Of a stretch of DNA of 62,519 nt, positions 5,783 through 56,791 are shown in pieces. The position numbers were made by a program, and so were the translations under genes. The notes beneath the pieces are model-generated. The model saw only the letters and a program-made list of their open reading frames with translations. It was not told the DNA's origin and searched no databases. The stretch lies in assembly GCA_964400165.1 (NCBI GenBank), contig CAYNSX010000003.1, positions 1 to 62,519 of the forward strand. Direction: 5' to 3'. Origin of the DNA: an uncultured bacterium. GTDB taxonomy: Bacteria; Armatimonadota; Hebobacteria; CAYNSX01. How positions within the stretch are numbered: position 1 is the first letter of the stretch; each line of letters begins with the position of its first letter.

Positions 5783-5783
5783 C

Positions 5784-7030: not shown

Positions 7031-7043
7031 GGTCACCAAAGGC

Positions 7044-9856: not shown

Positions 9857-9872
9857 GCCGTCAGTGTAACCC

Positions 9873-10917: not shown

Positions 10918-10944
10918 GAGGTCTTCACCGCGCGGCGAAAGGCA

Positions 10945-11034
10945 ACCCCTCCCCCAACCCCTCCCCGTTTACGGAGAGGGGCAGCAACAACTGCCACCCC
11001 ATCCCCAGCCCTTCCCCGTGCACGGGGAAGGGTG
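10945..11034. repeat. Two tandem palindromic units related to family B, between paaA and paaB
   Basis: CCCCTCCCCGT-TT-ACGGAGAGGGG and CCCTTCCCCGT-GC-ACGGGGAAGGG, each preceded by a C-rich tract. Confidence 0.7.
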
Positions 11035-11050
11035 ACGAAAACAGAGGTCG

Positions 11051-12028: not shown

Positions 12029-12059
12029 GCCGCCTGATGATAGCAACTTTGCATCAGTT

Positions 12060-12087
12060 CCCACACTCTACACCCCACACCCGACAC
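12060..12087. repeat. Short tandem heptamer repeat (NNNACAC x4)
   Basis: CCCACAC TCTACAC CCCACAC CCGACAC in the intergenic gap. Confidence 0.6.
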
Positions 12088-12088
12088 C

Positions 12089-13054: not shown

Positions 13055-13069
13055 CGGCGGCGCACTCGC

Positions 13070-13975: not shown

Positions 13976-14277
13976 CCCTGCACCTCCGCGAAGACGAATG
14001 TGACCAGCCCTTTGGCGAAGCCCATCAGGTTGGCGCCCGCCGCCTTGCCTTCCTCGGACACCATCGCCGCCTGCATCTCCTGCGCCGACTCGAAATACAG
14101 TTCCGCCATCCGATAATACGGCGCCGGGTGGCCGGTGGGCGTGCCGGTGAAGCGCGTCGTCTCCAGCCGCACCAGGCCGGGCATCAGCCGCGCCAGGGGC
14201 ACATGCGTCTCGGTGTACTGGCGGTCGAAGCCGGCGGGGTCGTCGGGGCGGGTGAAGAGGGCGACGAGTTTGACCAT
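13972..14277 (-). CDS. EthD-family reductase
   Basis: MVKLVALFTRPDDPAGFDRQYTETHVPLARLMPGL...YYRMAELYFES; 101 aa. Confidence 0.88.
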   Translation of the reverse strand: MVKLVALFTRPDDPAGFDRQYTETHVPLARLMPGLVRLETTRFTGTPTGHPAPYYRMAELYFESAQEMQAAMVSEEGKAAGANLMGFAKGLVTFVFAEVQG

Positions 14278-14352
14278 GCGCGTGCCTGTGGAGTTCGCCC
14301 TGCGTCCATCACTTCCTGTGGACGAGCCGCGCGGCAAACGATGGTGCGACAA

Positions 14353-16155
14353 TTACAGCGCGCCAGCAGCAATTTTGGGATTTGCCCACTTGAACCGGGG
14401 CAAGGGATACCGATAGGTCTCGTCCAGTTGTGGGACGCCGTTCGCATCAAAGATGGTCAGGCGAAGTCGGTCGCGAGCCTCAGGCAGCAACACCAGGCCA
14501 ATTCCGACAAGGTTTGCCCGACGCGCCACTTCGTCAGGAGCCGACTGAAAACGCGTGTCAATCGGCTTGAGACGCTTCGGCGCGCCCTTGGACCCAGCAG
14601 CAAACACCCCGTCCGCGTCGTATTCCGCTTCATACAACAGCAGGGACGATGCGCCTTCGCCCACGACGCCAAACACGTCGTCCGGCAACCCTACCTCCGG
14701 GTCAAACCGTCCATGTTCCAACCAGAAGAGAAATACTGGGCCAGCACCGGGTGGCTCCCCGTCAACACGAGTGGGCTTGCACCCCCCAAAGTGAATCCCG
14801 CCGGACTCTTGGAGGATGATGGGGCCGGAATGCCCGATACCCCGCTTCTCGTCATCATCCCACTCCCAAAAGTGGGCAAGTCCGGCGTCTCCCCACGGCA
14901 GTTCCGGCAACTGCCATGTGCGGTCCCATTGATAGATGGTTCCTGTGCGCTTTCCGATCATGACGCTGTCGGCGAGGCGCCCATCTAGGAAGTGCGACAG
15001 TGCGCGCAGATCTTCGCCACCGCCCTGGTCGGTTGATCCCTGCATGCCAAGATTCTCCGACCAGAACTCCATTCCAGGCAGATCGTGCTCATTCACACTG
15101 CCGAGCGTGGCTCTGCCGGTCGACTCGTCCAACATTACCGACCGAAAGATTCGAATCTCACCGGCATCCCGCTCGCGGGCAATGTCTCGTTGCCGAGCTT
15201 CACCCGCGGGGTCCAAGGAATCGACCAACTCCGGTGTCCCGGGCGGGACTTCCGCGCGGAGTGCATCTAGTTCTTCTGACGAGAATTGCAGCCAACGGCT
15301 TTGCCGCAACTGTCCTGCATCAGAGTACTCACCCACCCAGACTGTCGAGTCGCCGTAGAGCTGCACCAGATACACGGTCCGCAGCGCAGAGGACGCAAAC
15401 CAGTCTCCCACAGGAATCGAATTGGTGCCGGAACGCAGGAACTCGCCAGAGACTCTCCTCGGGACCTTCAGTCCAGGGATGTCGTTCGACGCGAACGCGA
15501 CGCCGCGCGCGTCGAACGTTGCACTCGCAAAGCCGTAGTACTCGTCCACCGCAGGAACGGCCACGAGGATCGTCAGACTGGCAGCTCGAGTTCCTGCAAC
15601 CTGACTCGGCGGCGGGATTATGTTGCCGATGGCGCCCAGCGCTCCATCATTCTGTGTCCCAATCTGCACCCACGCCTCCGTGCGTCGAATGGGGTCGAAC
15701 CACTCCGTGAGGCAGAGTTCCTCGCCACCAGGGGCGGAAAGGGAACGAAAGCGCACCCACGAGAAGATGGAAGTCGCACTCGTTGCGTCGACCGAACCTA
15801 CCGTCACATCACTCGTTACGCGCCCGTCTGCCACTCGGCGAAATCCTTCCTGACTTGGCAGTCCTGGGAATGGCTGGTAACGGTAGTGGTACCAAAAAAT
15901 GCCGGTCGCGGGTCGCTGTGCGAATGGATCCTCAAAGCTAATTCGGCGATCATGGGAAGCGACAGAAGCCTTCGCAAAGTATTGCCGCAGGTCTTCCGTC
16001 TGGCCGACCCCAATTGGCGGCTCGGCTGCTCCGCCGACCGGGAAAAGTGTGCTCTGTCCCCCGCTGGTGCTGCAGCCAAGCACGATAACAGCGCCGACTG
16101 GGACGAAGCGCCATTGCTTCCGCAGGCAACACGGCTGAAATTGCTTGACCCTCAT
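14353..16155 (-). CDS. Hypothetical lipoprotein, about 600 aa, beta-rich, atypical composition
   Basis: Long open frame filling the gap; from ATG 16155 a basic-hydrophobic N-terminus ends in lipobox-like VLGC; no family recognised. Confidence 0.6.
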   Translation of the reverse strand: MRVKQFQPCCLRKQWRFVPVGAVIVLGCSTSGGQSTLFPVGGAAEPPIGVGQTEDLRQYFAKASVASHDRRISFEDPFAQRPATGIFWYHYRYQPFPGLPSQEGFRRVADGRVTSDVTVGSVDATSATSIFSWVRFRSLSAPGGEELCLTEWFDPIRRTEAWVQIGTQNDGALGAIGNIIPPPSQVAGTRAASLTILVAVPAVDEYYGFASATFDARGVAFASNDIPGLKVPRRVSGEFLRSGTNSIPVGDWFASSALRTVYLVQLYGDSTVWVGEYSDAGQLRQSRWLQFSSEELDALRAEVPPGTPELVDSLDPAGEARQRDIARERDAGEIRIFRSVMLDESTGRATLGSVNEHDLPGMEFWSENLGMQGSTDQGGGEDLRALSHFLDGRLADSVMIGKRTGTIYQWDRTWQLPELPWGDAGLAHFWEWDDDEKRGIGHSGPIILQESGGIHFGGCKPTRVDGEPPGAGPVFLFWLEHGRFDPEVGLPDDVFGVVGEGASSLLLYEAEYDADGVFAAGSKGAPKRLKPIDTRFQSAPDEVARRANLVGIGLVLLPEARDRLRLTIFDANGVPQLDETYRYPLPRFKWANPKIAAGAL

Positions 16156-25838: not shown

Positions 25839-28373
25839 ATGGTGATCAAGAACACGGAGACTCGGCGGCTGATGGAGGCGCGCAGCCGGCCCGGGCCGCG
25901 GCAGCGCACCCTGGCCGGGCTGGCGCATCGCCTCATCTACTCGCCGCGGGACGGCAAGGCCGTCGCACCGCGGGCGCAGCCGCTCATCCCCGAGCCGGAC
26001 CACCTGCAACCGATTCGCCCCACTTCGCTCTACCTCTCCACGGCGCTTGAACTGTATGTGTTTGTCGTCATCGTCGTCGGGTTCCTGACCCTGGCGGTGT
26101 TGTGGTGGAATGAGATGGCGGTGCAGCCGCTGATGTTGTCGGCGTTGGTGCTGGTGGCGTTGAGCGTCGCGGTGTGCGGCGCGCAATTCTCGCCGCGGCT
26201 CGGCACGCTGCCGCTGAACTTCGCCTTCGCCACGCTGGGGCTGCTGACACTGGGCATCCCTGAAGCGATGCTCATCGGCGCGGTCACCGGCGCCGCCGGT
26301 CACTTCCGGCCGCGTGAGTTGGTGTACCCGGGTCTCTTCAAGGCCGCGGTCTTCGCCGTCTCTATGGCCGTCACCGGCGCTCTGTATATGTGGATGGGGA
26401 GTACTGCCGGTGTGTTCCGCGCCCCACACGACATTGCCGCGCTGGCGGTGGCGCTGGGCGGCGGCTTCGCGGTACACACGGTGGCCGTCTCGACTTCCTT
26501 CGCCTTGTCGGGGGAAGGCAGTCTCCTCAATGTTTGGCGCCGGCATTTCTTGTGGACCCTGCCGGGACTGGCGCTGGCCGGCGTCTCCGTGGTGGCCTAC
26601 ATCATGATGGCGAAGCAGCTGTCGCCGCCGGCTTCGATCGCGCTGATTGTGCCGTTCCTGCTCCTGTTCTTCTACGGTGTGCAGAACCACGACCGGCACC
26701 TGCGGCGGCACATTCACCGTGTCACCGAAGCGCACGAGCAGGTCCACGCGCTCTATTGGAACACGCTCGACTCCCTGGCGGGCGCCATCGACGCCAAAGA
26801 CCCCGACAGCCACGGCCCGCGGCTCTCCCGCCTGGTCCGGTACGCACAGGAAATCGGCCACGAACTCGGCCTGTCCAACGATTCCAACCAGGGCGTGCGG
26901 GTCGCCGCCCTGTTGCATGACATCGGCAAGCTCGGCGTCCCCGACCACTTGCTGCACAAGACTTCGGCCCTGACCGACGAAGAGGAGAAGCGCGTGCGCG
27001 AACATGCCGACATCGGCGCGCGCATCCTCGAAGCCGTGGAATTCCCCTGGCCGGTCGCGGAATTGGTGCGAGCGCACCATGAGCAATATGACGGCAGCGG
27101 CTATCCACAGGGCTTGCAAGGCGAGGCCATCCCCATCGGCGCGCGCATTCTGGCGGTCGCCGACGCGTACAGCGACATGACCGACCCGCGCCCGGACCGC
27201 CCGCCCCTGGGCGCCGAACAGGCGCGCGCCGTCATTCTGGAACGCAGCGGCAAGCAGTTCGACCCGGTCGTGGTGGCGGCATTCAACCGCGTTTGGCCGA
27301 CACTTGAGACGGAGTTGCAGCGCGCCGAAGGCATGCGCAATGTCTCCGACGGCGCGGTGCGGCCGCTCTCGGCTGGGTTCCGCGACATCGCCGAAGCCAA
27401 CCGCGAACTCCTGGCACTTTACGAATTGGCGCAGACCATCGGCAGTTCGCTGACCACCGACGAAACGGTCTCGGTGGTGCTGGGCAAACTGAAGCGCATC
27501 CTCGACTTCACCACCGCCGTCCTCTACATCGATGATGGCAAGGGCGGCTTGGTGGCTCGCGGCGCGGAGGGCGAATTCGCCGAGGTCTTCAAGGACCGGC
27601 GCCTCGGCCCCGAGTCCGGTGTGTCGTTCCAAGTGTTCAAGTCCGGCGAGGGGCAACTCGTGGACGACCCGGGGACCGAAGGCGAATTCAACCCCCAAAC
27701 CGGCACGCGCTTCTCGGCGGCGCTGGCGGCGCCCGTCATCGGCAACGATGGGCGGCCCGTCGGGACGCTGACGCTCTACGACCGGCATGCCGGCTATTTC
27801 ACGCTGGACTATCTGCGCCTGCTGAACATCATCGCCCACCAGGCCGCGGTGGCACTGGAGAACTCGCGCCTCTTCGAAGAGACGCGCACCTCGGCGCTGA
27901 CCGACCCGCTGACCGGCTTGCCGAATGCGCGCTACCTGGCGACGCACCTCGACCAGGAACTGGTGATGTGCCGGCGCACCAACCGGCCGTTCGCCGTCCT
28001 CTATCTCGACCTCGACCATTTCAAGCCGATCAACGACACTTTCGGCCACACCACCGGCGACCTCGTCCTGCAACGCGTGGCGCACCTGCTCAAGAGCCAG
28101 ATGCGCGAATACGACATTTGCACGCGCTACGCGGGCGACGAATTCATCGCCGTGCTTCGGGAAACCGGCCGGGCAGCCGCCGAAGATGCGGCCTATCGCA
28201 TCAAGACTGCCATCCGGCAACTCGACCTCGGCTTGCCGCAGCCGCTCAAACTGGGCATCAGCGTCGGCATCGCCTACTTCCCGCAAGACGGCAACTCGCT
28301 GCGCGAGTTGATTGACGCCGCCGACGCCTCGATGTACCGCGACAAGCGCGAGCGGCACGCCGGCCGCACCTAG
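25839..28373 (+). CDS. Membrane-bound c-di-GMP enzyme: multi-TM region, HD-GYP, GAF, GGDEF
   Basis: 844 aa; about 6 TM segments; LHDIGK and HHEQYDGSGYP; GAF-like segment; DPLTGLPN, DLDHFKPINDTFGH, REYD I-site, YAGDEF. Confidence 0.9.
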   Translation: MVIKNTETRRLMEARSRPGPRQRTLAGLAHRLIYSPRDGKAVAPRAQPLIPEPDHLQPIRPTSLYLSTALELYVFVVIVVGFLTLAVLWWNEMAVQPLMLSALVLVALSVAVCGAQFSPRLGTLPLNFAFATLGLLTLGIPEAMLIGAVTGAAGHFRPRELVYPGLFKAAVFAVSMAVTGALYMWMGSTAGVFRAPHDIAALAVALGGGFAVHTVAVSTSFALSGEGSLLNVWRRHFLWTLPGLALAGVSVVAYIMMAKQLSPPASIALIVPFLLLFFYGVQNHDRHLRRHIHRVTEAHEQVHALYWNTLDSLAGAIDAKDPDSHGPRLSRLVRYAQEIGHELGLSNDSNQGVRVAALLHDIGKLGVPDHLLHKTSALTDEEEKRVREHADIGARILEAVEFPWPVAELVRAHHEQYDGSGYPQGLQGEAIPIGARILAVADAYSDMTDPRPDRPPLGAEQARAVILERSGKQFDPVVVAAFNRVWPTLETELQRAEGMRNVSDGAVRPLSAGFRDIAEANRELLALYELAQTIGSSLTTDETVSVVLGKLKRILDFTTAVLYIDDGKGGLVARGAEGEFAEVFKDRRLGPESGVSFQVFKSGEGQLVDDPGTEGEFNPQTGTRFSAALAAPVIGNDGRPVGTLTLYDRHAGYFTLDYLRLLNIIAHQAAVALENSRLFEETRTSALTDPLTGLPNARYLATHLDQELVMCRRTNRPFAVLYLDLDHFKPINDTFGHTTGDLVLQRVAHLLKSQMREYDICTRYAGDEFIAVLRETGRAAAEDAAYRIKTAIRQLDLGLPQPLKLGISVGIAYFPQDGNSLRELIDAADASMYRDKRERHAGRT

Positions 28374-42873: not shown

Positions 42874-43926
42874 TTAGCCGAGCCGGGCGACCAGCGCGGC
42901 CAGCACGGTGCACACGCCGCAGACCAGGTACAGAAACAGCACGGTCGCCCGTTGCGACCAGCCCAGCCCGAGCAGCCGGTGATGCACATGGCCGCGGTCG
43001 GCGCTGAAAATCGGCCGGCGGCGGATGAGCCGCCGCACCACCGCAAAAGTGACATCGAGCAGCGGCAACAGCAGCACAATGAACGGCACCACCAACGCGA
43101 AAGCCGTAGCGGTCTTGAAGCCGCCGAGAATGGAGGCGGTGGCGATCCAGTAGCCGAGGAACATACTGCCCAAGTCGCCCATAATCACCCGGGCCGGATT
43201 GAAGTTGTAAGGCAGGAAGCCGAGACACCCGCCCGCCAGCGCCGCCGACAGGACCGCCGCCGCCGCCGCCGCGCTGCCGCCGCGCGAGAGCGCCAAATAG
43301 ACAAAGCCGGCGGCGAAAATCGCCCCCGCGCCCGCGGCCAGTCCGTCGAGGCCGTCGAGCAGGTTCATCGCGTTCATCACCAGCACTACCCACAACACCG
43401 TCACCACGGCGCTGGCGCCGGCGCCGAGGAGGATGAAGTCGGGGTTGAAACTCACGCCCAGCGGCGCCAGCGCGTGCAGGATGGGATGCCCGTGCGGGAA
43501 TGGATTCGAGACCGCGTCGATGCGCACGCCCCACAACGGCAGCAGCATCGCAACGCCGACCTGTCCGGCGAGTTTTGCCAGCGGACGCAGTTTGTAACGG
43601 TCATCCACCGCGCCGACGATGGCGATGAGCACGCCGCCGCCCAGGAGCGCGTAGACGATCGGGCGCGTCGTCGCGGGCAGCGTGCCCGCCACGGCCAACA
43701 CCGCGGTCGCCACGCCGGCCACGACCGCCAGCCCGCCCCAGGTCGGCAAAGGCTTGGTGTGGACGCCGCGGGCAGTTGGCTGCGCGATGGCGCCGACGCG
43801 AGTCGCCAGCGCGATCGCGGCAGGCGTCAGCGCCGCCGTCATTCCGGCGGCCACCAGCAGCGACACGATCACCGTCAGCAGCATCGTGTCCCAGAGCGGC
43901 GCATCGATGCCGATGGCGGCGAACAT
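42874..43926 (-). CDS. Undecaprenyl-phosphate GlcNAc-1-phosphate transferase (WecA/TagO, GT4 family)
   Basis: RGVHTKPLPTWGG, VDD, NAMNLLDGLDGLA, FNPARVIMGDLGS, ADRGHVHHRL. Confidence 0.9.
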   Translation of the reverse strand: MFAAIGIDAPLWDTMLLTVIVSLLVAAGMTAALTPAAIALATRVGAIAQPTARGVHTKPLPTWGGLAVVAGVATAVLAVAGTLPATTRPIVYALLGGGVLIAIVGAVDDRYKLRPLAKLAGQVGVAMLLPLWGVRIDAVSNPFPHGHPILHALAPLGVSFNPDFILLGAGASAVVTVLWVVLVMNAMNLLDGLDGLAAGAGAIFAAGFVYLALSRGGSAAAAAAVLSAALAGGCLGFLPYNFNPARVIMGDLGSMFLGYWIATASILGGFKTATAFALVVPFIVLLLPLLDVTFAVVRRLIRRRPIFSADRGHVHHRLLGLGWSQRATVLFLYLVCGVCTVLAALVARLG

Positions 43927-44402
43927 CAGCGGGCTGTCCCGTCGGCGCCGAGTTGGTGCAAGGCCACACCGGCTTCTTCCAGCATCCGGCGGCCGAGTTC
44001 ATCGGGATACTCCCCGGCGAAGACGATGCGGTTGACGCCGGAATTGATGATGAGTTTGGCGCAGTTGCTGCACGGGCTGTCCGTGCAATACACCGTCGAA
44101 ACGTTCGTGGAAACGCCGTGGAGCGCGGCTTGGGCGATGGCATTGGCTTCGGCGTGGGCAGCGCGCTGGCAGCTCTCCCGTGCCGGCTGGTCGCCGAGTT
44201 TGAGGGTCATCAGCAGACAGCCCTCATCCGTGCAGTGCGGCAGGCCGCTGGGGGCGCCGTTGTAGCCACTGGAAAGGAGCCGCTTGTTGCGCACGATGAC
44301 GGCGCCGACATTGCGCCGCGGGCAGGTGGAGCGTTCGGCGACCACGCGGGCGATCTTCATGAAGTACTCGTCCCAGGAGGGACGGTCTTTCGGGACGCTC
44401 AA
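43926..44402 (-). CDS. dCMP/cytidine deaminase (ComEB-like)
   Basis: RPSWDEYFMKIA, RSTC, GYNGAP, HAEANA, PCSNC; TTG start inferred. Confidence 0.9.
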   Translation of the reverse strand: MSVPKDRPSWDEYFMKIARVVAERSTCPRRNVGAVIVRNKRLLSSGYNGAPSGLPHCTDEGCLLMTLKLGDQPARESCQRAAHAEANAIAQAALHGVSTNVSTVYCTDSPCSNCAKLIINSGVNRIVFAGEYPDELGRRMLEEAGVALHQLGADGTAR

Positions 44403-44535
44403 GCCCGGCCCCCGGAGGGACGCCCGGCCCCGCGCGCGCCACGGCGCGCACACGGTCTCGCGGAGCGATTCGAGCGGATGTCGTGCGCCATCGACGACCT
44501 CGCGTGCAGTGTAGCACGCCCCTGCGGGCGTGCCG

Positions 44536-46290: not shown

Positions 46291-47826
46291 TTAGTACCCG
46301 GTGCTGCCGGCGCGGACGGACGAGGCGTCGGTCGGTTGCTGCACGACGCGCTCGATCGCCCAGCGCACGGAACCCCCGATATTGTACCGTCCGAGCACAT
46401 AGGTTACACGCACCGCCTGTCGATAGCCCTGGTTGTCTGTAAAGACATGCAGGGCGTCGGCCTCGACGACCCCATCCGAGACGCTCGGCCGGACCGAGAC
46501 ATACTCGAAGTATTCGGTCTGCATCCAGGCCAGCCCGTCCTCGGTCATCCGGATGAAGGCGGCGGCGGAAATCCGCTCCTCACGGCCATCGGCGTCGGTG
46601 AGCGTGACACCCCGGGTGGGGTGCAGATGGGGCGCCAGATAACTGGCGTCGCTCTGCAGCCAAGCCGAGCGGATGTCGTCCAGGACGGCGTCATACGGCA
46701 CCGGCCGGGCGCTGGTGTAGGCGGCCCCGCCACCATAGTGGTTCGCCGAGCTGATGGAGATGACCAATGGCCGGAAGATGAAGGCGACTCCATAGCTATA
46801 ACCCCAGGGGGTGGCGCAGTAGGGCGCGTAGCCCCAGTAGTCCCACGGAGAATAGGCACCGTAGGATGGCGGGTAATAGCCGCTGCTCCACCAGAACGGG
46901 TCATACCAGCAGTTGAGGCGGGTGAACCAGACCACCCGCGGGTTGTAGGGATAGACGCAGTAGTTCTGCGGCCACCAAGTCGGCGGGCACGAGGGCACAA
47001 AGAAGGCCGTGCAGAACCGTCCCGGCGTGCTGTGGTTCCAGCCGTGGTGGAATGGATCGGTAAGCGAGCCCTGAATGGCGATGCCTGAACGCTCGCCGAG
47101 ACTGCCGCGCGGCAATTGCGGCCGCACCATTTCCGGCGCTGCCGGCCTGCCGACGCGGGGGTCGACCTTCTGCTCCGGCTGCCCGCGGATGAAATAGAAT
47201 CCGCTGCCCTGCTGCCCGCCCGGGTTCGGCTTGCCCAGGTCGGGGCGCGTCTGTCCCGGTCCCGTGATCGGTTTCCCATCGGGGCCTCGGGGGTCAACCC
47301 AAATCATTCCGCGGCTCTCCGGCGCGCGGGGCTGCACACCCAGGCGCGGGTCGCCTTGCGGCGCGCGCGCTTGCGGCGGCTGATACGGCCCGTAGCGCAC
47401 ATCGCCGCGCAGCGGCTCGCGTGCCTCGGGCAGCGACGGCGTTGGGCGGCCGTAAACGCTGCCGGGCGCGGTGCGCTGGTCGCCGAGGCGCGGGTCGGTC
47501 ACGCGCGGGGCGGTGGCGACGGAGCGCCCGTCGCTGATTCGTGGGGAGCGCGGGTCAGCGCCGCGCGACGGCGGAGCGACTGCGGTGCGACCGCTGCTTC
47601 GAACCGGGCCGACGGTCGTCGCGCCGCGCGCGGGCGCTCGCGGCGCAGGCGCGCTGCGCGCTTCGACCTTCTTGGGCGGTGCCGGCGGGCTGGACTTCTC
47701 GGAACTCTTGGAGTCGTCCTTCGCGCGCGCCATCGTGGAGAGGAGGACGAGGGCCAGGAACGCCGCGCACGCAGTCAGCCACGCGGACTTGCGGTACCGC
47801 GGTCGGGCCACTGAAATCGCTCGCAT
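46291..47826 (-). CDS. Hypothetical secreted protein: Pro/Arg-rich disordered region, Tyr/Trp-rich segment, folded C-terminal domain
   Basis: GGAGGTG SD; signal peptide ending MARA; 511 aa. Confidence 0.75.
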   Translation of the reverse strand: MRAISVARPRYRKSAWLTACAAFLALVLLSTMARAKDDSKSSEKSSPPAPPKKVEARSAPAPRAPARGATTVGPVRSSGRTAVAPPSRGADPRSPRISDGRSVATAPRVTDPRLGDQRTAPGSVYGRPTPSLPEAREPLRGDVRYGPYQPPQARAPQGDPRLGVQPRAPESRGMIWVDPRGPDGKPITGPGQTRPDLGKPNPGGQQGSGFYFIRGQPEQKVDPRVGRPAAPEMVRPQLPRGSLGERSGIAIQGSLTDPFHHGWNHSTPGRFCTAFFVPSCPPTWWPQNYCVYPYNPRVVWFTRLNCWYDPFWWSSGYYPPSYGAYSPWDYWGYAPYCATPWGYSYGVAFIFRPLVISISSANHYGGGAAYTSARPVPYDAVLDDIRSAWLQSDASYLAPHLHPTRGVTLTDADGREERISAAAFIRMTEDGLAWMQTEYFEYVSVRPSVSDGVVEADALHVFTDNQGYRQAVRVTYVLGRYNIGGSVRWAIERVVQQPTDASSVRAGSTGY

Positions 47827-47937: not shown

Positions 47938-49017
47938 TCAGGCGTGGAAGCGCACTATTACGACATCCCCGTCGTGGATGGCGTAACCGGCGCCCTCGGA
48001 ACGCACCTGGCCGTGGTCGTGCGCCGCCTTCCACGACCCGGCGGCGACGAGCGTATCGAACGGCAGCACTTCCGCCCGGACGAACCCCGCCGCCATATCC
48101 GTGTGGATGCGCGCCGCCGCGTCCTTGGCCGTTGTGCCGGCGGCGACGCTCCACGCCCGAGCTTCGCGGCCGACGATGGTGTAGAAAGTGACCCGCCCCA
48201 GCGCCCGCCCGCACGCCGCCAGCACCGCGCCGACGGCGTCGCCGGTGTCGCCGCCCTCGCTTTCGAAGGCGACGCGCTCGTCGGGTGAAAGGTCAGCCAA
48301 GTCCGCCACCAGCCGGGCGCGCAGCGGGATGACTTCCGCCGGCGTCACACACTCGCGCAGTGCGGCAAGCCAGGCGTCCTCTTGTGGGTCGCCGGCATCA
48401 CCCAGGTTGGCGAGATAGAGCAGCGGCGGGCGCGTCACCAGCGCCACCGTGTCACGCGGTATGTCGGCGATGCCTGTCCAGGTGCGCGCCGCGTGTCCGG
48501 CGTCCAGATGCGCTCGCAAAGAGTTCAGCCCGTCGGCGTGCCCGGCCTGCGCCTGCTGCCCGATGCGCTCCAGGTGCTTCACTTTCTTCAGTGCTCGATC
48601 GATGGCTGCCAGATCGGCGAGCAGCATCTCCGTCTCGATGACGCCAACATCGCGCGCCGGGTCGACGGCATCGAGCGGGTGCGCCACCTGCTCGTTCGCA
48701 AAACAGCGCACCACATGCAGCACGGCATCGACATCACGCAGATGCCCGAGGAATTCCGACCCCAGCCCGGCGCCGGTGCTGGCGCCCGGCACCAGTCCCG
48801 CCAGGTCCACGATCTCCAGCGAGTCGGGGACGATGCGCTCCTGGCCGGCGAGCGCGGCAAGCCGCTCCAGGCGCGGGTCCGCGATGCGGACGATGCCGCG
48901 CGCGGCGTCCACCGTCGTGAACGCATACGGCCCGACGCGCCCACCGGCGTGCGTCAGCGCGTTGAAAACGGTGGTCTTGCCCGCGTTCGGCAGTCCGACC
49001 AACCCGACCGACAGCAC
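47938..49017 (-). CDS. ychF: Obg-family ribosome-associated ATPase YchF (divergent)
   Basis: GLVGLPNAGKT, YAFTT, VDLAGLVPGASTGAGLGSEFL, HVVRCF, TFYT...EARAW, IHTDMAAGFVRAEV, TGS domain EGAGYAIHDGDV. Confidence 0.88.
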   Translation of the reverse strand: MLSVGLVGLPNAGKTTVFNALTHAGGRVGPYAFTTVDAARGIVRIADPRLERLAALAGQERIVPDSLEIVDLAGLVPGASTGAGLGSEFLGHLRDVDAVLHVVRCFANEQVAHPLDAVDPARDVGVIETEMLLADLAAIDRALKKVKHLERIGQQAQAGHADGLNSLRAHLDAGHAARTWTGIADIPRDTVALVTRPPLLYLANLGDAGDPQEDAWLAALRECVTPAEVIPLRARLVADLADLSPDERVAFESEGGDTGDAVGAVLAACGRALGRVTFYTIVGREARAWSVAAGTTAKDAAARIHTDMAAGFVRAEVLPFDTLVAAGSWKAAHDHGQVRSEGAGYAIHDGDVVIVRFHA

Positions 49018-49019: not shown

Positions 49020-49505
49020 CTATGCTCCGAGCCGATAGCCGATGTGGCGGACGGTCTGCAGGAACGCGCCGTATTCCGCGCCGAGTTTCCGGCGTAAACG
49101 GTAGATGTGCACATCCACCGTCTTCGTGCTGCCGAAATAGTCGCGCCCCCAGACTTCCTGCAACAGGCGCTCACGGCTGATGGCGCGCCCGGGCCGCTCG
49201 ACGAAATGCCGCAGCAGTTCGAATTCGCGGTGCGACATCGGCACCGCCGTCCCACTGATTTCAACGCGGCGCGCATCGAGGTCGAGACGCAGGTCGCGCC
49301 ATTGCAGGAATCCGATCGGCCCGAGTTCGCTCAAGATGCGGTGGAGCGCGGCCCGGCCGGCGTCGGAGAGTCCCAGACTCGCCGGGTTCTGGTCAATCGT
49401 CTGCGCCAGTTGGGCGCGCTCGGTCGGCGACAGCGCTCGCAGCGCCGTCACCACCTGCTCGGCGAGCGCAGCGATGCCCTCCGGGGTGCCCGGCGCATCA
49501 GCCAT
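49020..49505 (-). CDS. OmpR/PhoB-type winged-helix DNA-binding protein without a receiver domain
   Basis: 161 aa; SHREFELL, SRERLLQEVWG, KTVDVHIYRLRRKL, IQ/LQTVRHIGY; helical N-terminus with no DD/D/K receiver motifs. Confidence 0.85.
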   Translation of the reverse strand: MADAPGTPEGIAALAEQVVTALRALSPTERAQLAQTIDQNPASLGLSDAGRAALHRILSELGPIGFLQWRDLRLDLDARRVEISGTAVPMSHREFELLRHFVERPGRAISRERLLQEVWGRDYFGSTKTVDVHIYRLRRKLGAEYGAFLQTVRHIGYRLGA

Positions 49506-51186
49506 TACGCCCGTCGCTCTCCAGCAAGCGGCGCACCCACGCCTCCTCGTCGGCGCGGGTGCTCACTTCGCTGTCGAGTTTCGCCGCACGCAACGCGCGC
49601 AGCGCCTCGCCCAGGCGCGGGCCGCGTTCGATGCCGAGGCGCTGCAAATCGTCGCCGGTCAGTTCCGGCTTCACATGCCGCCACACGCGCAAGTACCGTT
49701 CCGCTGTAGGCCGCGCAGTCTCATTGGTCATAGCGCCCGCCAGCAGCACCACTTCCGGCGGCAGGCGGTCGACGCGCGCTGCGATTTCGCTCGGGCGCTT
49801 GTCCGCGGTCAACAACACGGAGACCTCATCTACCTGTGAGAGCGCCTCGAACACCGCCCGCGTCTCGCGTTCCAGTCCCCAGCCCGAGCCGAGGGCCGCC
49901 CGCTTCTCCGGTGGCAATCCCGCGACCAGCGCCGCGAGGCGAAAGCGCACCACATTCACTTCCGCCATCGCCTCCGACGCCTCCGCGGCGCGCAGCCAAC
50001 TGACGGGCTCCGCGCCGCCCGCCCATCCCACTGCCTGCCACACCCCGAGGTCATCGAGCCGCTCGACGACAGTCGCGCCGCCCTCTCCCAGCACGCGCAG
50101 AACAGCGGCGCCGAGGCGCTCGCCGGACAGCGTCGCCAGCGCCCCGCGTGCGATGGCGTCCTTCGCCTGCGCCTCGGTTTCGGCGTCCATCCGAAAGCCG
50201 AGGCGGACTTCCAATTGCACGGCGCGGAAGATGCGGGTCGGGTCGTCATCGAAACTGGCCCCGTGCAGGATGCGAATGGTGCGCGCCGCCAAGTCGGCGG
50301 CGCCGCCGAACGGGTCGGCGATGGCGCCGAGGCCGTCGGGCGCTAAACGCGCCGCCATTGCGTTGATGGAGAAGTCGCGCCGGCGCAGGTCTTCGTCCAG
50401 CGCCGCCGGTTCGACGACCGGCAGCGCGCCGGGCCGCGGGTAGCGTTCACGCCGCGCCGTCGCCAGGTCGATTTCGAGCGCGCCCGCTGAATTGGTGAGA
50501 GTGACTGTCACGGTGCCGAACGCCTCGTGAATGCGTCGCGGTGTGCCCGACGCAGCCAGCCGCTCGGCGACCGCCAACGCATCGCCCTCGATCACGCAGT
50601 CCAGTTCCGCGGGCGCGCGGCCGAGCAACAGGTCGCGCACCGGCCCGCCCACCAGATGCGCCGGCATCCCGAGCGCGGCTGCGGCGTCGGCGACCTGGCG
50701 CAGCGCTTCGCGCTGCGCCTCGGTGAGCAAAGCCGCGGCGCCGTTCAGCGACTGTGCCGATTGGGCTGGTGCAGGCGCCCGATGCGTGGCCAAATACGAA
50801 TCGAGCAGCAGCGCCGCCGCCACCGCGTGTTCGCGTTCGCGCCGCTCATCGCCCGACACGCCGACTGCCGCCAGTTGCCGCGTCGCCTCCTGGCTGGTGT
50901 GGCGCTCGTCCCACAGGTCCACCGGCAGCCCGGCGATGCGCTCCAACCCCTTGGCGAACGCCGCAATCGACTCCGCTTGCTTCGTCCGGGTGCCGTCCTT
51001 CATAAGCGGCACACCCACCACAATCCGCTCGGCGCCGCGCTCGCGGGCCAGCGCCGCCACCTCCTCGAAGTCCTCGCGCCCGCCGCGGCGCGTGATCGTG
51101 AAGAGCGGCTGCGCCATCGCCGCCGGGCCGTCGCAGGCGGCGAGCCCGAGGTAGCGGTCGCCGACATCCACGGCGAGCACCTTCAT
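49498..51186 (-). CDS. ruvX: In-frame fusion: YqgF/RuvX RNase H-fold nuclease + class II CCA/A-adding tRNA nucleotidyltransferase (562 aa)
   Basis: ATG 51186 overlaps the MBL stop; YqgF motifs LAVDVGDRYLGLA, IVVGVP, WDERHTS; about 20-aa A/P/Q/S linker with no stop; NTase motifs LVGGPVRD, DLATARRERY..PGALP, DLRRRDFSINAMA, DDPTRIFRA. Confidence 0.88.
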   Translation of the reverse strand: MKVLAVDVGDRYLGLAACDGPAAMAQPLFTITRRGGREDFEEVAALARERGAERIVVGVPLMKDGTRTKQAESIAAFAKGLERIAGLPVDLWDERHTSQEATRQLAAVGVSGDERREREHAVAAALLLDSYLATHRAPAPAQSAQSLNGAAALLTEAQREALRQVADAAAALGMPAHLVGGPVRDLLLGRAPAELDCVIEGDALAVAERLAASGTPRRIHEAFGTVTVTLTNSAGALEIDLATARRERYPRPGALPVVEPAALDEDLRRRDFSINAMAARLAPDGLGAIADPFGGAADLAARTIRILHGASFDDDPTRIFRAVQLEVRLGFRMDAETEAQAKDAIARGALATLSGERLGAAVLRVLGEGGATVVERLDDLGVWQAVGWAGGAEPVSWLRAAEASEAMAEVNVVRFRLAALVAGLPPEKRAALGSGWGLERETRAVFEALSQVDEVSVLLTADKRPSEIAARVDRLPPEVVLLAGAMTNETARPTAERYLRVWRHVKPELTGDDLQRLGIERGPRLGEALRALRAAKLDSEVSTRADEEAWVRRLLESDGRNG

Positions 51187-52016
51187 GCCGCCGTCCGCCG
51201 GCGCTGCTTCACGGGCTCGCGCGCCGCGACATCGAACACCATCCCGTCCCGCGCCGCGGTGACGGGCAGCCCGAGCCGCTCGCTCATCTGCGCGGCAAGC
51301 AGCGACGGCTTGGCGCGCCAGACGGTCAGGCCGAAGTGTGTTAGGACGGCGGCCTCGGGCCGCACTGCGCGCAAAATCTCCTCCGCTTCCGGGATCGCCA
51401 AGTGCTGGATGTGGTCGCGCGGCTCGAGCAGGACGACATTGATGACCAGCACCGCGCACCCGCGGTACTGGTCGGCGAGTCCGTCGAACGCCGCCGTGTC
51501 GGTGAGCAGCCCGACGGTCCCGTCGCGCGTGTGAAATCGCACACCGTAAGTCTCGACGCCGTGTTTGTGCGCGGCCGTCGTGCTGAAGCGCAGCGCGCCG
51601 AGCGCATAGTCGGACGCCGCTTCCAGCGTCACGACTTGCGCCGGGTGCTCGCGCAAGTAGTGCAGCACCGCGCCGTCGGGCGCCAGCGCGTCGCCCGGAC
51701 AGAAGAGCGCCCCGCGCTTGCGCGAGCCGCCAAGTGTCATCGCCTCGATGAGCGCATTGACATCGGCGGAGTGGTCGAGGTGCTGGTGCGTGAGCAGGAT
51801 GCCGTCGAGCAGCGTCGGGTCGAGGCGCCGCCGGACGGCATGCACCAGCGCACCCGGGCCCGGGTCGATGCTCAATCGTTGACCTTCGAGTTCCGCCCAC
51901 AGGCCGGCGGTGGCGAGGTGCTGATAGGCGAGCATAAAGCGGGCGCCGCCGGTTCCAAGGAAAACCAGGCGGTTGGCGGACGGCGTGGGCGGCGGTTGGT
52001 CGGACAGGGAACCCAT
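51183..52016 (-). CDS. Metallo-beta-lactamase-fold hydrolase (RNase Z/PhnP/YycJ-like)
   Basis: FLGTGG, IDPGPG, THQHLDH (HxHxDH), HKH, LTDT, HLAIPEA, LTHFG. Confidence 0.88.
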   Translation of the reverse strand: MGSLSDQPPPTPSANRLVFLGTGGARFMLAYQHLATAGLWAELEGQRLSIDPGPGALVHAVRRRLDPTLLDGILLTHQHLDHSADVNALIEAMTLGGSRKRGALFCPGDALAPDGAVLHYLREHPAQVVTLEAASDYALGALRFSTTAAHKHGVETYGVRFHTRDGTVGLLTDTAAFDGLADQYRGCAVLVINVVLLEPRDHIQHLAIPEAEEILRAVRPEAAVLTHFGLTVWRAKPSLLAAQMSERLGLPVTAARDGMVFDVAAREPVKQRRRTAA

Positions 52017-52728: not shown

Positions 52729-53882
52729 CAGACCCGCTCTACCTCGACCACGCTGCCACCACCCCGCTCGACCCGCGTGTCGCCGCTGTCATGGCGGGCG
52801 TCATCGAGTCCGCGTTCGGCAACCCGTCCAGTCTGCACACCTGGGGCCGCGCCGCGAAGGCGTTGCGCGAAACAGCGCGTGCACAAGTCGCCGCGTTGCT
52901 CAACGCCGACCCCGAAGAGGTGTACTTCACCGCCAGCGGCTCCGAATCGTGCGCGCTCGCTATCCGTGGCATCGCGGAAGCGAATGCGCGCCGCGGCCGT
53001 CAACTCATCAGCACCCCGATCGAACACCACGCCGTCTTGCACACGCACCAGGCGCTCGAACGCGACGGCTGGCGCGTCACCTACCTGCCGGTGGACCGCT
53101 TCGGCCGCGTCGCTCCCGAACAACTGGCCGCGGCGCTGACCGACGACACCGCTCTCGTGTCCGTAATGCACGCCAATAATGAAATCGGCACGGTGCAGCC
53201 CATCGTGGAACTCGGCGCGCTGTGCCGCGCCCGCGGCGTACTTTTCTTCACGGATGCGGTGCAGACCGTCGGCCATCTGCCGGTGGATGTGCGGGCGCTG
53301 CCAGTCGACGCGGTCGCTTGCGCCGGCCACAAGTTTTATGGCCCGAAGGGGGGCGCCGGGCTGTGGGTGCGACGCGGTGTCCGCTGCGCGCCGCTGTTCC
53401 ACGGCGGCGGGCACGAACACGGGCTGCGCTCGGGCACGGAGAATGTGCCTGCCATCGCCGGCCTCGGCGCCGCCGCCGACATCGCGCGCACCGAGATGAC
53501 CGCTGATGCGGCGCGCCTGCTGCCGCTCCGCGACCGCCTGACTGCCGGCCTGTTGCGCAGCGTGCCGGGCACGCATCTGAACGGACACCCGACCGAGCGG
53601 CTTGCCAACAATGTGAATGTCTCATTCGAAGGTGTGGACGCCGAGTCGCTGCTCATCGCGCTCGACCTCGAAGGCATCGCCGCGTCCTCGGGGTCTGCAT
53701 GCACTTCGGGGTCGCTCGAACCGAGCCATGTGCTGCTCGCTTGCGGACAAGAGCGGGCGCTGGCGCGCGGATCGCTGCGGCTGACGCTTGGGCGCGTGAC
53801 GGCCGCCACCGACATCGACCGCGTCCTCGAGGTCGTCCCGCGACTGGTGGCGCGCGTCCGACGGATGCCGGCGCGCGTCTAG
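52725..53882 (+). CDS. iscS: Cysteine desulfurase (IscS/NifS class I)
   Basis: YLDHAATTP, FGNPSS, ANNEIG, HKFYGPKG (PLP Lys), RSGTEN, SSGSACTSG (catalytic Cys). Confidence 0.92.
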   Translation: MTDPLYLDHAATTPLDPRVAAVMAGVIESAFGNPSSLHTWGRAAKALRETARAQVAALLNADPEEVYFTASGSESCALAIRGIAEANARRGRQLISTPIEHHAVLHTHQALERDGWRVTYLPVDRFGRVAPEQLAAALTDDTALVSVMHANNEIGTVQPIVELGALCRARGVLFFTDAVQTVGHLPVDVRALPVDAVACAGHKFYGPKGGAGLWVRRGVRCAPLFHGGGHEHGLRSGTENVPAIAGLGAAADIARTEMTADAARLLPLRDRLTAGLLRSVPGTHLNGHPTERLANNVNVSFEGVDAESLLIALDLEGIAASSGSACTSGSLEPSHVLLACGQERALARGSLRLTLGRVTAATDIDRVLEVVPRLVARVRRMPARV

Positions 53883-56791
53883 GGGCCGGCGTCGGCGACG
53901 CCGACCGGCGGCTCCGCCAGCGCCTTCAGTGACTCCGCCACGCTGCGCAGCGCCACTGACTCCGCGGCGGACTCGGCCGCATCCCGCAAGTACCACCAGC
54001 AGCGCCGCTTGGCGTCGTCATCGGCGAACTTCTCGAAGAAGTGCGCGGCCGAGCCGGCGTAGAACAAACTCTTGAAGACATTGGCGGCGGCGAAGACCGT
54101 GCCGTCAATCTCCGGATCCTGATGCGCGGCGAGCAATTCGTCGATGGCGGCCGGGTCGAGGTCGGCTTCGGGCGAGTGCAGTAGCGTGGCGTAATCGATT
54201 TCGCGTGGGCCGAGCGTCGCCTGTTCGAAGTCCACGGCGTGGACGCCGTCGTCGTGGAACAGCAGATTGCGCGGGATGAACTCGTTGTGAATGAAGGTGC
54301 GCGGCGCTTGCGCCAGGATGTCGATCAGCGGCCCCGCCGCAGCAGTGAACTCGCCGAGCAGCGCGTCCTCCTCCCGCCCCTGGAAGCGCAGGACGCGGCG
54401 GGCGGCGATGCGGAGCGTGTCGCGGTAATACTGCGGCGTCAGGCGCTCCTTGTGCACCTTCTCGACTTCGCGGCTCAACTCCGAGAGGTGCGCGTTCGCC
54501 CGGCGATGCAGATCCACCAGCGCCGCCAGACACAAGTCCATCATGACGCGGCGCTCGGCGGGCGTCGCCTGCGCCAGGCGGTCCGACAGCGTGTCCTCGC
54601 CCAAGTCTTCGAGGAACAACAGCGACCGCTCGACGCCCTCAAGGCCGCCCAGCACTTTCGGCACCGGGGCGCTGAACCGCCCGAGTAATGTCAGAATGCC
54701 CTGCTCGCGGCGATAGCAGGCCGTCGAAAACTTGACCCGCTCTTCTTCGTATTGCTTGACCACCACGCCGACGGGCGGCTCATCGCCCCACCCCACCTGC
54801 AAGCGGAACAGCCGGTTGCGCGACGGCGTCGGCTCGATCGTCTGTTCGTAGACCAGCGGCTCCTGCCCTTTCTTGCGCCCGAGCGCCTGGCTCAATTCGT
54901 CGGGCGCGATGCCGAGGTCGCGGCACGCCTCGCGCGTGCGGACCACCAAATCGCGCGGCGCCGCCGCCAGCGACGCGGGCGTGCCGGGCAGCAGCGGATG
55001 CTCGCCGCCCCAGCGCCGCAGCGCGTCATCGAGGCGCGCCAAGCGCATCTTGATGTCGCGCTCCATCCGGTTGAGCGTCCCGCGCGCCTTCTCATAGTCC
55101 TCGCGTTGCACGGCATTGAAGGCCGCGGGCAGCCGCCGCCGCTCGATGGCGAGCAGGTCGAGCGCCTGTTCGTTCAGCCGGTAGGCCTCCTGCAAGCGGC
55201 GGTGGACATCGTTCGCCTGAATGGCGAAATCGGAGCGCCGCGCCTGCGTCTGGGCGGCGCGCAGCGCCTGTTGATGCGAGCGGCGCGCCAGCGACACCAG
55301 CCGCAGCTTCACATCGCCCAGCGTCTCGCGCAGGCCGGCGATGGCGTCGGCCTTGCTCTTCGGCACCCGCTCCCACAACTGGATGGCCTTGATCAGGTCG
55401 CCGCGGGCGACATACATCCGCCCCAGTTCCCATACCACCTGTTCGCGCAGCACCAGGTTGCGCAGCGGCACCGCCTCCCATTCGCGCAAGGCGGCGTCGA
55501 GGTTGCGCCGCTCGGCGTGAATCTTGCCGAGCAGCAGGCGCACCTCGAACTCGCCCAGCGCGCGCCACAGGAGCGATTCGCTCGCCATGTTGGTCAGGTC
55601 GGCGAGCGTCAGGTCGGTCTCACGCGCCGGCGCGTAGAGCGGCCGCCCCAGGACGCCGAGCGGCAGTCCCTGATACACCCAGATGCGGTCACTATCGTCG
55701 CCCGTGCCGAGGAAGTAGTAGACGCGCCGCGCCTTCGTCAGCCCCGCCCAGAACAGAAACGCCGCCATCACCACAACCCCGGTGATCCAGATGTCGTGGC
55801 TCAACAGCGACAGTCCCGCCAGCACCGAAAACGCCAACCCGCCGCCCAGGAACAACACCAGCACTTGCTCGTCGGGCCAGCCCATCCACTGGAAGTGATG
55901 ATGCACCGGTGCGACGAAGAACGGACGGAAGACCTCGCCAGTGCGGTGCCGCAGCACCTGCACCACCCGCCGCCCAGCGCGCACCATCCCCGTCTGAATG
56001 ATCACCGACAGCGTGTCGACGACGAACATCCCGCCGATGAGCACGAGCAGCCATTCAGTTTTGGTGAGCAGCGCCAGTATGGCCAGCGTCGCGCCCGCCC
56101 CCATGGCGCCGGTGTCACCCATCAGCAGCCGGGCGGGTGGCCGGTTGTAGAAGAGGAATCCGAGCGTGGCGCCGGCGAGACTGACGCCGATGGGCACAGA
56201 CAGTGACCCGGAATGGACGCCCGTCAGGACGGCGTAGGTGAGCGCGGCGAGCACCAGCAGACTGCCCGCCAGCCCATCCACGCCGTCGGTCAGGTTGACC
56301 GCGTTCGCCGTCCCGATCAGCACGAGCGCGGCGAAAATCACATAGCCATAACCGAGCGCGACTTCGACATCGAACACTGGGATATACACTGTCCCGACAT
56401 CGAAACGCAGGTACAGCAGCAGCCCGATCATCAGGCCGAGGACGGCCTGGCCGAGGAGTTTCTCGCGCTCCTGCAGGCCCTGTCCGCGCGTCTTGCCGAG
56501 ATCGTCGAGCAGCCCGAGCGCGCCGAACCCGCCAGCGACCAAGATCACCAGCAACGCGGTGGCGCCGTCGATGTCATCCCGTTGAAACGCCAGCACGATG
56601 CCGAGGCCCACCGCCAGCCCGGCGATGATGCCGACGCCGCCGCCGAGCGGCTTCTTGCGTCCGGTGCGCCCGGGGCGGTCCTTCCCCTCTTTCACTTCAC
56701 CGGACCGAAACGCACCCCAGCGAGTCAGGACGCCGCGGCACACCAGCAGCGAAACGAGTCCCGACCCGAGGAAGGCGAGGAACGCCGGCAC
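53879..56791 (-). CDS. MraY-like phospho-MurNAc-pentapeptide transferase fused to TPR/coiled-coil and an APH/AmgK-like kinase-fold domain (970 aa)
   Basis: N-terminal about 330 aa: GLLDD, KLLGQ, NAVNLTDGVDGLA, MGDTG, APVHHHF; TPR-like ELGRMYVARGDLIKAIQLW; C-terminal LEDLG, HNEFIPRNLL, VDFEQATLGP..IDYATLL; no internal stop. Confidence 0.82.
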   Translation of the reverse strand: MPAFLAFLGSGLVSLLVCRGVLTRWGAFRSGEVKEGKDRPGRTGRKKPLGGGVGIIAGLAVGLGIVLAFQRDDIDGATALLVILVAGGFGALGLLDDLGKTRGQGLQEREKLLGQAVLGLMIGLLLYLRFDVGTVYIPVFDVEVALGYGYVIFAALVLIGTANAVNLTDGVDGLAGSLLVLAALTYAVLTGVHSGSLSVPIGVSLAGATLGFLFYNRPPARLLMGDTGAMGAGATLAILALLTKTEWLLVLIGGMFVVDTLSVIIQTGMVRAGRRVVQVLRHRTGEVFRPFFVAPVHHHFQWMGWPDEQVLVLFLGGGLAFSVLAGLSLLSHDIWITGVVVMAAFLFWAGLTKARRVYYFLGTGDDSDRIWVYQGLPLGVLGRPLYAPARETDLTLADLTNMASESLLWRALGEFEVRLLLGKIHAERRNLDAALREWEAVPLRNLVLREQVVWELGRMYVARGDLIKAIQLWERVPKSKADAIAGLRETLGDVKLRLVSLARRSHQQALRAAQTQARRSDFAIQANDVHRRLQEAYRLNEQALDLLAIERRRLPAAFNAVQREDYEKARGTLNRMERDIKMRLARLDDALRRWGGEHPLLPGTPASLAAAPRDLVVRTREACRDLGIAPDELSQALGRKKGQEPLVYEQTIEPTPSRNRLFRLQVGWGDEPPVGVVVKQYEEERVKFSTACYRREQGILTLLGRFSAPVPKVLGGLEGVERSLLFLEDLGEDTLSDRLAQATPAERRVMMDLCLAALVDLHRRANAHLSELSREVEKVHKERLTPQYYRDTLRIAARRVLRFQGREEDALLGEFTAAAGPLIDILAQAPRTFIHNEFIPRNLLFHDDGVHAVDFEQATLGPREIDYATLLHSPEADLDPAAIDELLAAHQDPEIDGTVFAAANVFKSLFYAGSAAHFFEKFADDDAKRRCWWYLRDAAESAAESVALRSVAESLKALAEPPVGVADAGP

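Follow-up and report, generated by a model that had tools for sequence, protein, structure and literature searches.

The 62,519-nucleotide stretch of contig CAYNSX010000003.1 analysed here (the window) encodes on its minus strand, at 49498..51186 (562 codons plus TGA), a protein in which a RuvX/YqgF domain is followed by a linker and a class II tRNA nucleotidyltransferase. Judged from sequence comparisons, this gene is likely to join two enzymes native to the lineage, RuvX and tRNA nucleotidyltransferase, in a fusion under selection that yields one protein of ~60 kDa with both halves probably active. YqgF/RuvX is near-universal and often essential, and its cellular job is still debated; for two decades, its substrate has been disputed between Holliday junctions, the pre-16S rRNA 5' end and antitermination. 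In this arrangement, an N-terminal RuvX/YqgF domain is tethered via a short flexible linker to a complete tRNA 3'-end nucleotidyltransferase. We propose that the nucleotidyltransferase completes tRNA 3' ends by adding either A76 or all of CCA and that RuvX is a metal-dependent nuclease of a minority "His-type", with a His in helix alpha3 and an aromatic residue at position 12, and the fusion would ensure 1:1 co-expression and co-localisation of an RNA nuclease and a tRNA-end polymerase. Both families are textbook, and the architecture is new as far as our searches reach.

On the DNA, the gene forms a single frame from the ATG at 51186 to the TGA at 49498-49500, and its ATG overlaps the TGA of an upstream gene for a metallo-beta-lactamase (MBL)-fold protein (ATGA), confirming the 562-aa frame with coupled start described in the first-pass annotation of this DNA. 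A mechanical extension of the open reading frame (ORF) upstream to a TTG at 52530 was discarded, as it overlaps the upstream gene and is not coding. Three parts can be delimited: the RuvX/YqgF domain with RNase H fold (50782..51186, aa 1-135; from Pfam, NCBIfam, PDB alignments and Foldseek), a low-complexity linker rich in Ala, Pro, Gln and Ser (50731..50781, aa ~136-152; from the predicted local distance difference test, pLDDT, and comparison with a sister species) and a complete class II nucleotidyltransferase with head, neck, body and tail (49501..50730, aa 153-562; from PDB sequence search and Foldseek). The linker, ATHRAPAPAQSAQSLNGAAA (aa ~133-152, about 17-20 aa long), is stop-free. In-frame starts between aa 123 and 178 are restricted to TTG codons 132 and 153 and ATG codon 174, and no Shine-Dalgarno match better than 3/6 precedes any of the three, as had been claimed for an uninterrupted linker lacking a good second start. 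Neither a promoter-like nor a terminator-like site was found inside the gene. The AlphaFold model of the whole protein has a mean pLDDT of 84.9, with low confidence confined to the linker (pLDDT <50 at aa 138-145) and a flexible loop (aa 245-277). Foldseek of this model against solved structures returned no chain spanning both halves.

Over its whole length of ~135 aa, the N-terminal half matches the RuvX profiles: Pfam RuvX (PF03652) covers aa 1-133 (nt 50788-51186; E 8.7e-34, 117.2 bits against a cut-off of 29.2), agreeing with the span of about 50790-51186 noted earlier, and TIGR00250 scores 83.7 bits against 43.25. The RNase H-like order of elements (beta1-3, alpha1, beta4, alpha2, beta5, alpha3) is matched by the AlphaFold prediction (pLDDT 83-98, blocks 1-130), and Foldseek aligns the domain to 7ESS and 1VHX with template modelling (TM) scores of 0.69-0.77. 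Residues were compared with 120 stand-alone relatives plus E. coli YqgF (n = 121) and with PDB entries 1VHX, 7ESS and 1NMN; conserved ones include D7 (51166-51168), G9, G14, G58-x-P60 and D93-E94-R95. The domain has the fold and length of the stand-alone proteins (E. coli YqgF 1NMN/1OVQ, B. subtilis YrrK 1VHX, M. tuberculosis RuvX 7ESS and D. radiodurans YqgF), shares with them the beta1 Asp, the G-x-P motif and the beta5 D-E-R, and exceeds the Pfam and TIGR00250 cut-offs. Unlike them, it is joined to another enzyme and carries His in alpha3 and Tyr at position 12. A YqgF-homologous domain without the alpha3 carboxylate inside a larger RNA-associated protein also occurs in Tex/Spt6 (PMC3985635), where the partner domains are S1, HhH and SH2. 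In contrast to the Tex/Spt6 domain, that of the fusion qualifies as a genuine RuvX by its PF03652 score and retains both remaining acidic residues.

The 410-aa C-terminal region aligns end to end with stand-alone enzymes of 390-440 aa and with the structures of the T. maritima CCA-adding enzyme (TmCCA; 3H37-3H3A, 5HC9) and the A. aeolicus A-adding enzyme (AaL; 1VFG, 4WBY-4WC6); aa 153-562 match these two most closely in both sequence and fold. The head profile PolyA_pol (PF01743) lies above its cut-off (aa 177-305; E 1.8e-22, 80.4 bits against 23) and is followed by a full-length body and tail, as in class II enzymes. In the PDB sequence search, 3H37 was matched with E 4e-44, and 4WBY and 1VFG with E 4e-44 to 1e-42; the scores of TmCCA and AaL tie (155.1 vs 155.0 bits), and Foldseek, with TMt 0.64-0.72 over about 400-430 columns to both, slightly favours TmCCA. 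By these matches, the nucleotidyltransferase is placed in the TmCCA/AaL subfamily of class II. It shares with both enzymes GGxVRD, the third carboxylate, the loop ARRExYPxPGxxPxVEP, RRD, (E/D)DxxR, body and tail, and differs from them in having ExD for DxD and the substitutions R324Q and E361A. The best NCBIfam model, NF041569 ("A-adding tRNA nucleotidyltransferase"), reaches 208 bits against a cut-off of 1440, a low score because the model is an 880-aa DHH-CBS-nucleotidyltransferase profile of which only positions 461-688 were matched; NF008137 aligns to the head domain with 74 bits. An identity as poly(A) polymerase (PcnB) was considered and rejected, since TIGR01942 scores 71 bits (cut-off 306), clearly less than the tRNA nucleotidyltransferase models.

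In this subfamily, additional modules at the N-terminus are the rule. The N-termini of the relatives are either bare (~400-440 aa in total) or hold one CBS domain or a CBS pair, DHH-DHHA1, or DHH-DHHA1-CBS, and aligned with them, RuvX occupies the slot of the CBS or DHH-DHHA1(-CBS) modules; the fusion thereby differs from the NF041569 type, whose N-terminal module is DHH-DHHA1-CBS. A literature search on the DHH and CBS modules of these enzymes yielded nothing useful.

The fusion recurs in a sister species. Its orthologue lies on a 1.27-Mb contig (locus L001, ENA ERZ27248239) at 9932-11623 and comprises 563 aa from a GTG start. The ENA entry of this protein (P0002) is 540 aa long and begins at an internal Met; in the DNA, an in-frame GTG 23 codons upstream of the ENA start, overlapping the stop of the upstream gene (GTGA), restores VKVLAVDVGDRYLG. 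The sister ORF was obtained from three gene callers or assemblies (ENA, Logan and JGI), and on JGI contig Ga0334722_10000010 the protein is called at its full 563 aa. Since the JGI locus and L001 are 100% identical over 12.6 kb of DNA, the agreement is between independent assemblers and does not extend to independent samples. Window and sister show 76% DNA identity over 8 collinear kb and 78% amino acid identity in the fusion protein (overall dS ~0.86), and the sister keeps the fusion, the linker length and the gene order of the window. A stop or frameshift in the linker of a close relative, named in the first-pass annotation as grounds for refutation, is absent: the sister's junction is in frame and of equal length. 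Ratios of non-synonymous to synonymous substitution (dN/dS) from a Nei-Gojobori comparison are 0.127 for the RuvX domain, 0.153 for the nucleotidyltransferase head, 0.120 for its body and 0.30 for its tail, compared with 0.34 for the linker, which retains 38% identity without indel or stop. Both halves are thus under purifying selection in the two species, and the RuvX domain, with 85% amino acid identity, is the most conserved part of the protein.

Outside these two species, the fusion was not encountered. A phmmer search over 1.84 billion representatives at 50% identity gave 39,224 matches, and among the best 150 of these the sister's cluster alone covers residues before ~107; this best-150 list has a floor of 206 bits, so a RuvX fused to a more distant nucleotidyltransferase would score lower and be missed. 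No further two-domain match appeared among the top 120 of a word-indexed search of 5.8 billion clusters. Two scans of JGI metagenomes returned no fusion in the first and the sister species alone in the second. An exact-sequence look-up of the window protein retrieved no record. A word-indexed protein search with the RuvX domain found stand-alone RuvX only (102-191 aa), and since it missed both the window's 562-aa protein and its 540-aa relative, it is an unreliable negative for longer architectures. Scanning GTDB (one genome for each of 185,579 species) gave 80 loci, all matching only from residue 120 onwards, within the nucleotidyltransferase; this indicates a lineage without a species representative in GTDB. 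Searching the surroundings of these related nucleotidyltransferase genes by tblastn with the RuvX domain revealed no ruvX within about 10 kb in any of the 80 loci. The fusion of two conserved neighbouring genes was accordingly rejected as an origin, the partners not being habitual neighbours. In the literature searched, no paper links YqgF with CCA-adding enzymes or tRNA nucleotidyltransferase, and the earlier impression of a fusion without a known counterpart holds for the searched databases, apart from the sister species. A second ruvX or nucleotidyltransferase gene was found neither within the 62.5-kb window nor within the 21.6-kb sister locus, the parts of the two genomes that were read.

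Both halves appear to be native to their host. The window has a G+C content of 67%. Two metagenomic proteins, from its own and the sister species, share 99% and 82% identity with its YchF protein, after which identity drops to 50%, indicating a deep-branching, barely sampled lineage. The nearest stand-alone RuvX shares 49% identity with the RuvX of the fusion, and the nearest nucleotidyltransferases 45-48% with its C-terminal half. As RuvX, nucleotidyltransferase and YchF are similarly diverged, these values suggest that both halves are the lineage's own housekeeping enzymes, vertically inherited.

The active site of the RuvX half deviates from that of most relatives. In window and sister alike, the alpha3 Asp is replaced by H120 (50827-50829), in register with the Asp of YqgF from B. 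subtilis, M. tuberculosis and E. coli, bearing out the earlier observation of a His at this conserved position; D7 and E94 are present, so two of the three acidic residues remain. The alpha3 residue is Asp in 116 and His in 5 of the 121 relatives compared. The fusion also has Y12 in place of the otherwise dominant Arg12, and all five His-type relatives likewise lack Arg12, having W or H there (Fisher p = 2.6e-5, not corrected for relatedness); the combination of alpha3 His and a residue other than Arg at 12 occurs in about 4% of the relatives sampled. Two His-type stand-alone ruvX genes (L083, 5001-5498; L084, 4949-5350) adjoin tsaB, rsmE, polA and rpmA, and their contigs also have genes for a TLC ATP/ADP translocase or ankyrin proteins, from which host-associated bacteria may be surmised. 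Their context suggests housekeeping genes in what look like host-associated bacteria or reduced genomes. In D. radiodurans YqgF, an RNA 5'-3' exo/endonuclease, the alpha3 Asp is D122, and in RuvC of Thermus and Deinococcus the equivalent alpha3 site natively holds His (PMC9601230). Because of the His-type stand-alone genes and the His of these RuvC proteins, we read H120/Y12 as a natural active-site variant of RuvX, rather than an inactivation. Judged against its relatives, His120 lies within the natural range of the RuvX family, and the His-type may represent an unrecognised active-site subtype.

For the nucleotidyltransferase half, residues were counted in an alignment of 252 close relatives (251 at position 361). 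GGxVRD, D196, D240, R245/E247/Y249/P256, D266, RRD269-271, H308, D315, R318, R321 and R328 are kept. Motif A (GGPVRD, D196 and D240 present) has Glu194 as its first carboxylate, giving E194-L195-D196 (50599..50607) and hence the ELD for DxD of the first-pass annotation; of the 252 relatives, 246 have D at this position and 6, all stand-alone or CBS-fused, have E. In class I CCA-adding enzymes, ExD is the normal signature, as in the A. fulgidus enzyme with Glu59/Asp61/Asp110 (PMC3925840). Motif B (R269-R270-D271) and motif D (D314-D315-P-T-R318) are present by comparison with the relatives, and the translation shows motif C as DPFGGAADL. Motif D, for which a template role of EDxxR has been described (PMC2532741), extends with the next helix over 50212..50247, where Q324-L325 stands for R-(Y/F), the "QL" for RF noted previously; position 324 is R in 243 relatives and Q in a single one of the 252, and L325 occurs in 25. 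A third deviation, absent from the first-pass annotation, lies in the neck motif sR357xxxA361xxxhh (50089..50121), which reads ERLGAAVLRVL, with Ala at the Glu position (E in 239/251 relatives).

All three substitutions, E194, Q324 and A361, are shared by window and sister, and each can be found singly among stand-alone or CBS-fused relatives. In four of five relatives that have lost the basic residue at 324, E361 is lost as well (Q/A, D/A, N/V and G/V at the two positions; P0173, P0145, P0146 and P0234). This joint loss suggests an inter-helix salt bridge between R324 and E361 that has disappeared as a pair from several class II nucleotidyltransferases, and not an alteration of catalysis. The claim that both active sites are deviant thus stands as far as the residues go, and is weakened as an argument for dead domains, because each deviation (H120, ExD and R324Q/E361A) occurs in stand-alone relatives and two pairs look coupled.

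With respect to specificity, the flexible-loop region RRERYPRPGALPVVEPAA (50401..50454, aa 245-262; from alignment and the low pLDDT of aa 245-277) retains R245, E247, Y249 and P256, which are invariant in the 252 relatives, and is predicted to be disordered. The fusion loop RRERYPRPGALPVVEP aligns with ARRETYPRPGAYPKVEP of AaL and is conserved across the subfamily, in line with the loop noted earlier. In CC-adding enzymes, the flexible loop between motifs A and B is deleted (PMC2910056; bioRxiv 10.64898/2026.05.29.728689), and its presence argues against a CC-adding enzyme. The neck motif sRxxxExxxhh has been described as a hallmark of A-adding enzymes (bioRxiv 10.64898/2026.05.29.728689), but it also fits the T. 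maritima CCA-adding enzyme (PRLRQELEKIL) and is therefore not exclusive to A-adding enzymes. The fusion departs from the A-adding type in its low NF041569 score, in the absence of DHH and CBS domains and in Ala361.

The fusion is the second gene of a tightly packed run, conserved in the sister: MBL-fold hydrolase, fusion, winged-helix protein and YchF. The hydrolase (51183..52016, minus strand, 277 aa; Lactamase_B_2 by Pfam, with NCBIfam and PDB matches) lies upstream, is translationally coupled to the fusion and is 83% identical in the sister, where the two genes are coupled as well (GTGA). Among NCBIfam models, the hydrolase comes closest to RNase Z, matching its N-terminal half with 47 bits (cut-off 293), and the PDB neighbours of the hydrolase are PhnP/YhfI-like phosphodiesterases and RNase Z. 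The ATG of the OmpR/PhoB-type winged-helix protein (49020..49505, minus strand, 161 aa) overlaps the fusion stop by 8 nt; the protein has a non-receiver N-terminus of ~65 aa and no receiver domain, making it an orphan output domain, and the arrangement is the same in L001. The YchF ATPase (47938..49017, minus strand) is the next gene of the run. Compared with the 80 related nucleotidyltransferase loci, MBL-fold, winged-helix and YchF genes stand beside the nucleotidyltransferase in this lineage only. No PADLOC defence-system match was obtained for the fusion or its neighbours, no tRNA gene was found in the window, L001 or L082, and the window has no Rfam match.

Several other explanations were weighed against a selected fusion of two active enzymes. 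An artefact of assembly, sequencing or annotation, or two neighbouring genes inactivated by recent read-through, might be suspected in a metagenome-derived sequence whose sister protein was shortened to 540 aa by the ENA gene caller. We regard this as extremely improbable and reject it, because the junction is in frame with equal linker length in two species that have diverged to 76% nucleotide and 78% amino acid identity, both domains are under purifying selection, and the gene has no internal Shine-Dalgarno start, promoter or terminator; moreover, JGI called the full 563 aa, and with ruvX and the nucleotidyltransferase gene not being neighbours in the 80 related lineages, there is no adjacent pair to read through. 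A catalytically dead RuvX domain, serving the nucleotidyltransferase as an RNA-binding or targeting module in the manner of the YqgF-like domain of Tex/Spt6, would explain the loss of the alpha3 carboxylate and of Arg12; D122A abolishes the RNase activity of D. radiodurans YqgF (PMC9601230), and Tex has lost the same carboxylate with no nuclease activity shown (PMC3985635). It nevertheless seems unlikely to us: D7 and D93-E94-R95 are strictly kept in a domain with 85% identity and a dN/dS of 0.127, His is capable of metal binding or of serving as a base and is native in Thermus and Deinococcus RuvC, and the same His/aromatic pair recurs in stand-alone ruvX genes of housekeeping context. Less likely still is a nucleotidyltransferase that has lost or changed its activity through E194, Q324 and A361, as a pseudo-enzyme or with a new specificity. 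Three rare substitutions are combined here only, and all NCBIfam equivalog scores lie far below their cut-offs, but no other invariant residue of motifs A-D or the flexible loop has changed, dN/dS is 0.12-0.15, ExD is functional in class I enzymes (PMC3925840) and present in six relatives, and Q324/A361 look like the coupled salt-bridge loss of P0173, P0145, P0146 and P0234; such a change of function is accordingly rated as quite improbable.

A further alternative is a closer cooperation in tRNA-end maturation or repair, in which RuvX, possibly with the MBL-fold hydrolase, would trim or heal tRNA ends that the fused nucleotidyltransferase rebuilds. A nuclease is here physically fused to a tRNA 3'-end polymerase and translationally coupled to a hydrolase that NCBIfam models place nearest to RNase Z; in relatives, DHH-DHHA1 phosphoesterase modules sit at the same position, D. 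radiodurans YqgF acts on RNA as a 5'-3' exo/endonuclease (PMC9601230), and the HD phosphohydrolase domain of E. coli Cca may offer an analogy. However, the hydrolase scores far under the RNase Z cut-off, neither its gene nor ruvX stands beside the nucleotidyltransferase gene in the 80 other lineages, no inter-domain interface is predicted, and just two species within a single, poorly sampled lineage are known to have the fusion. Such cooperation is an attractive but speculative option, and it is likewise doubtful that RuvX acts directly on tRNA precursors or damaged tRNAs together with the fused nucleotidyltransferase and the coupled RNase Z/PhnP-like hydrolase. If it did, the cluster would be a dedicated tRNA-end maturation and repair module and a "Rosetta stone" tying YqgF to tRNA metabolism. 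Some observations also weigh against the preferred reading of a selected fusion with both halves active. The predicted TM score (pTM) of the model, 0.58, gives no sign of a fixed interface between the two domains. No NCBIfam A-adding or CCA-adding equivalog cut-off is reached, E194, Q324 and A361 are combined in this lineage only, and the alpha3 Asp-to-Ala mutant of D. radiodurans YqgF is dead (PMC9601230); the combined rare substitutions and this dead mutant make reduced or altered activity of either domain possible. Independent sampling amounts to two species only, and the genome is covered over 62 kb here and 21 kb in the sister, so that an extra ruvX or CC-/CCA-adding gene may lie elsewhere.

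Yakunin et al. reportedly described E. coli Cca in 2004 as a CCA addition and repair protein with an HD phosphohydrolase domain. Like this protein, the fusion joins a class II CCA enzyme covalently to a hydrolase domain acting on RNA ends, at least by prediction; unlike it, E. coli Cca has its hydrolase as a C-terminal HD domain built into the body, and the accessory domains are not homologous. As a selected natural fusion to a tRNA 3'-end polymerase, the protein provides circumstantial evidence for an RNA-side role of YqgF, and it offers a single polypeptide in which coupling between nuclease and nucleotidyltransferase can be tested. RuvX is a fourth kind of N-terminal module in the TmCCA/AaL subfamily, after CBS, DHH-DHHA1 and DHH-DHHA1-CBS. 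The His-type RuvX site, the ExD motif and the loss of R324/E361 amount to experiments of nature on residues generally regarded as invariant. The fusion may also be a mere stoichiometric tethering of two housekeeping enzymes.

Further genes of the window were recorded alongside. A TadA-like cytidine/deoxycytidylate deaminase (43926-44453, minus strand), a tRNA adenosine deaminase candidate that is 91% identical in the sister, is encoded on the strand of the fusion, five genes further downstream. For a 511-aa protein (46291-47826, minus strand), 65% conserved in the sister, no match was obtained in Pfam, NCBIfam or PADLOC; it has an N-terminal signal-like segment, a long repeat-like region rich in Pro, Arg and Gly (DPR..., PRV...) and a segment rich in W, Y and P. 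An unusual architecture, Glycos_transf_4 (MraY/WecA-type) with a C-terminal APH phosphotransferase domain, is found in a 970-aa protein at 53879-56791 (minus strand) and also in L001 (4321-7233). On the plus strand, an 844-aa signalling protein (25839-28373) combines HD-GYP-type HD_5, GAF and GGDEF domains and could both make and break cyclic di-GMP. Finally, the first part of the window (1-14400, minus strand) holds a phenylacetate/aromatic-CoA degradation cluster with two PaaA/PaaC-family proteins, three enoyl-CoA hydratases, a 3-hydroxyacyl-CoA dehydrogenase, a thiolase and an aldehyde dehydrogenase.

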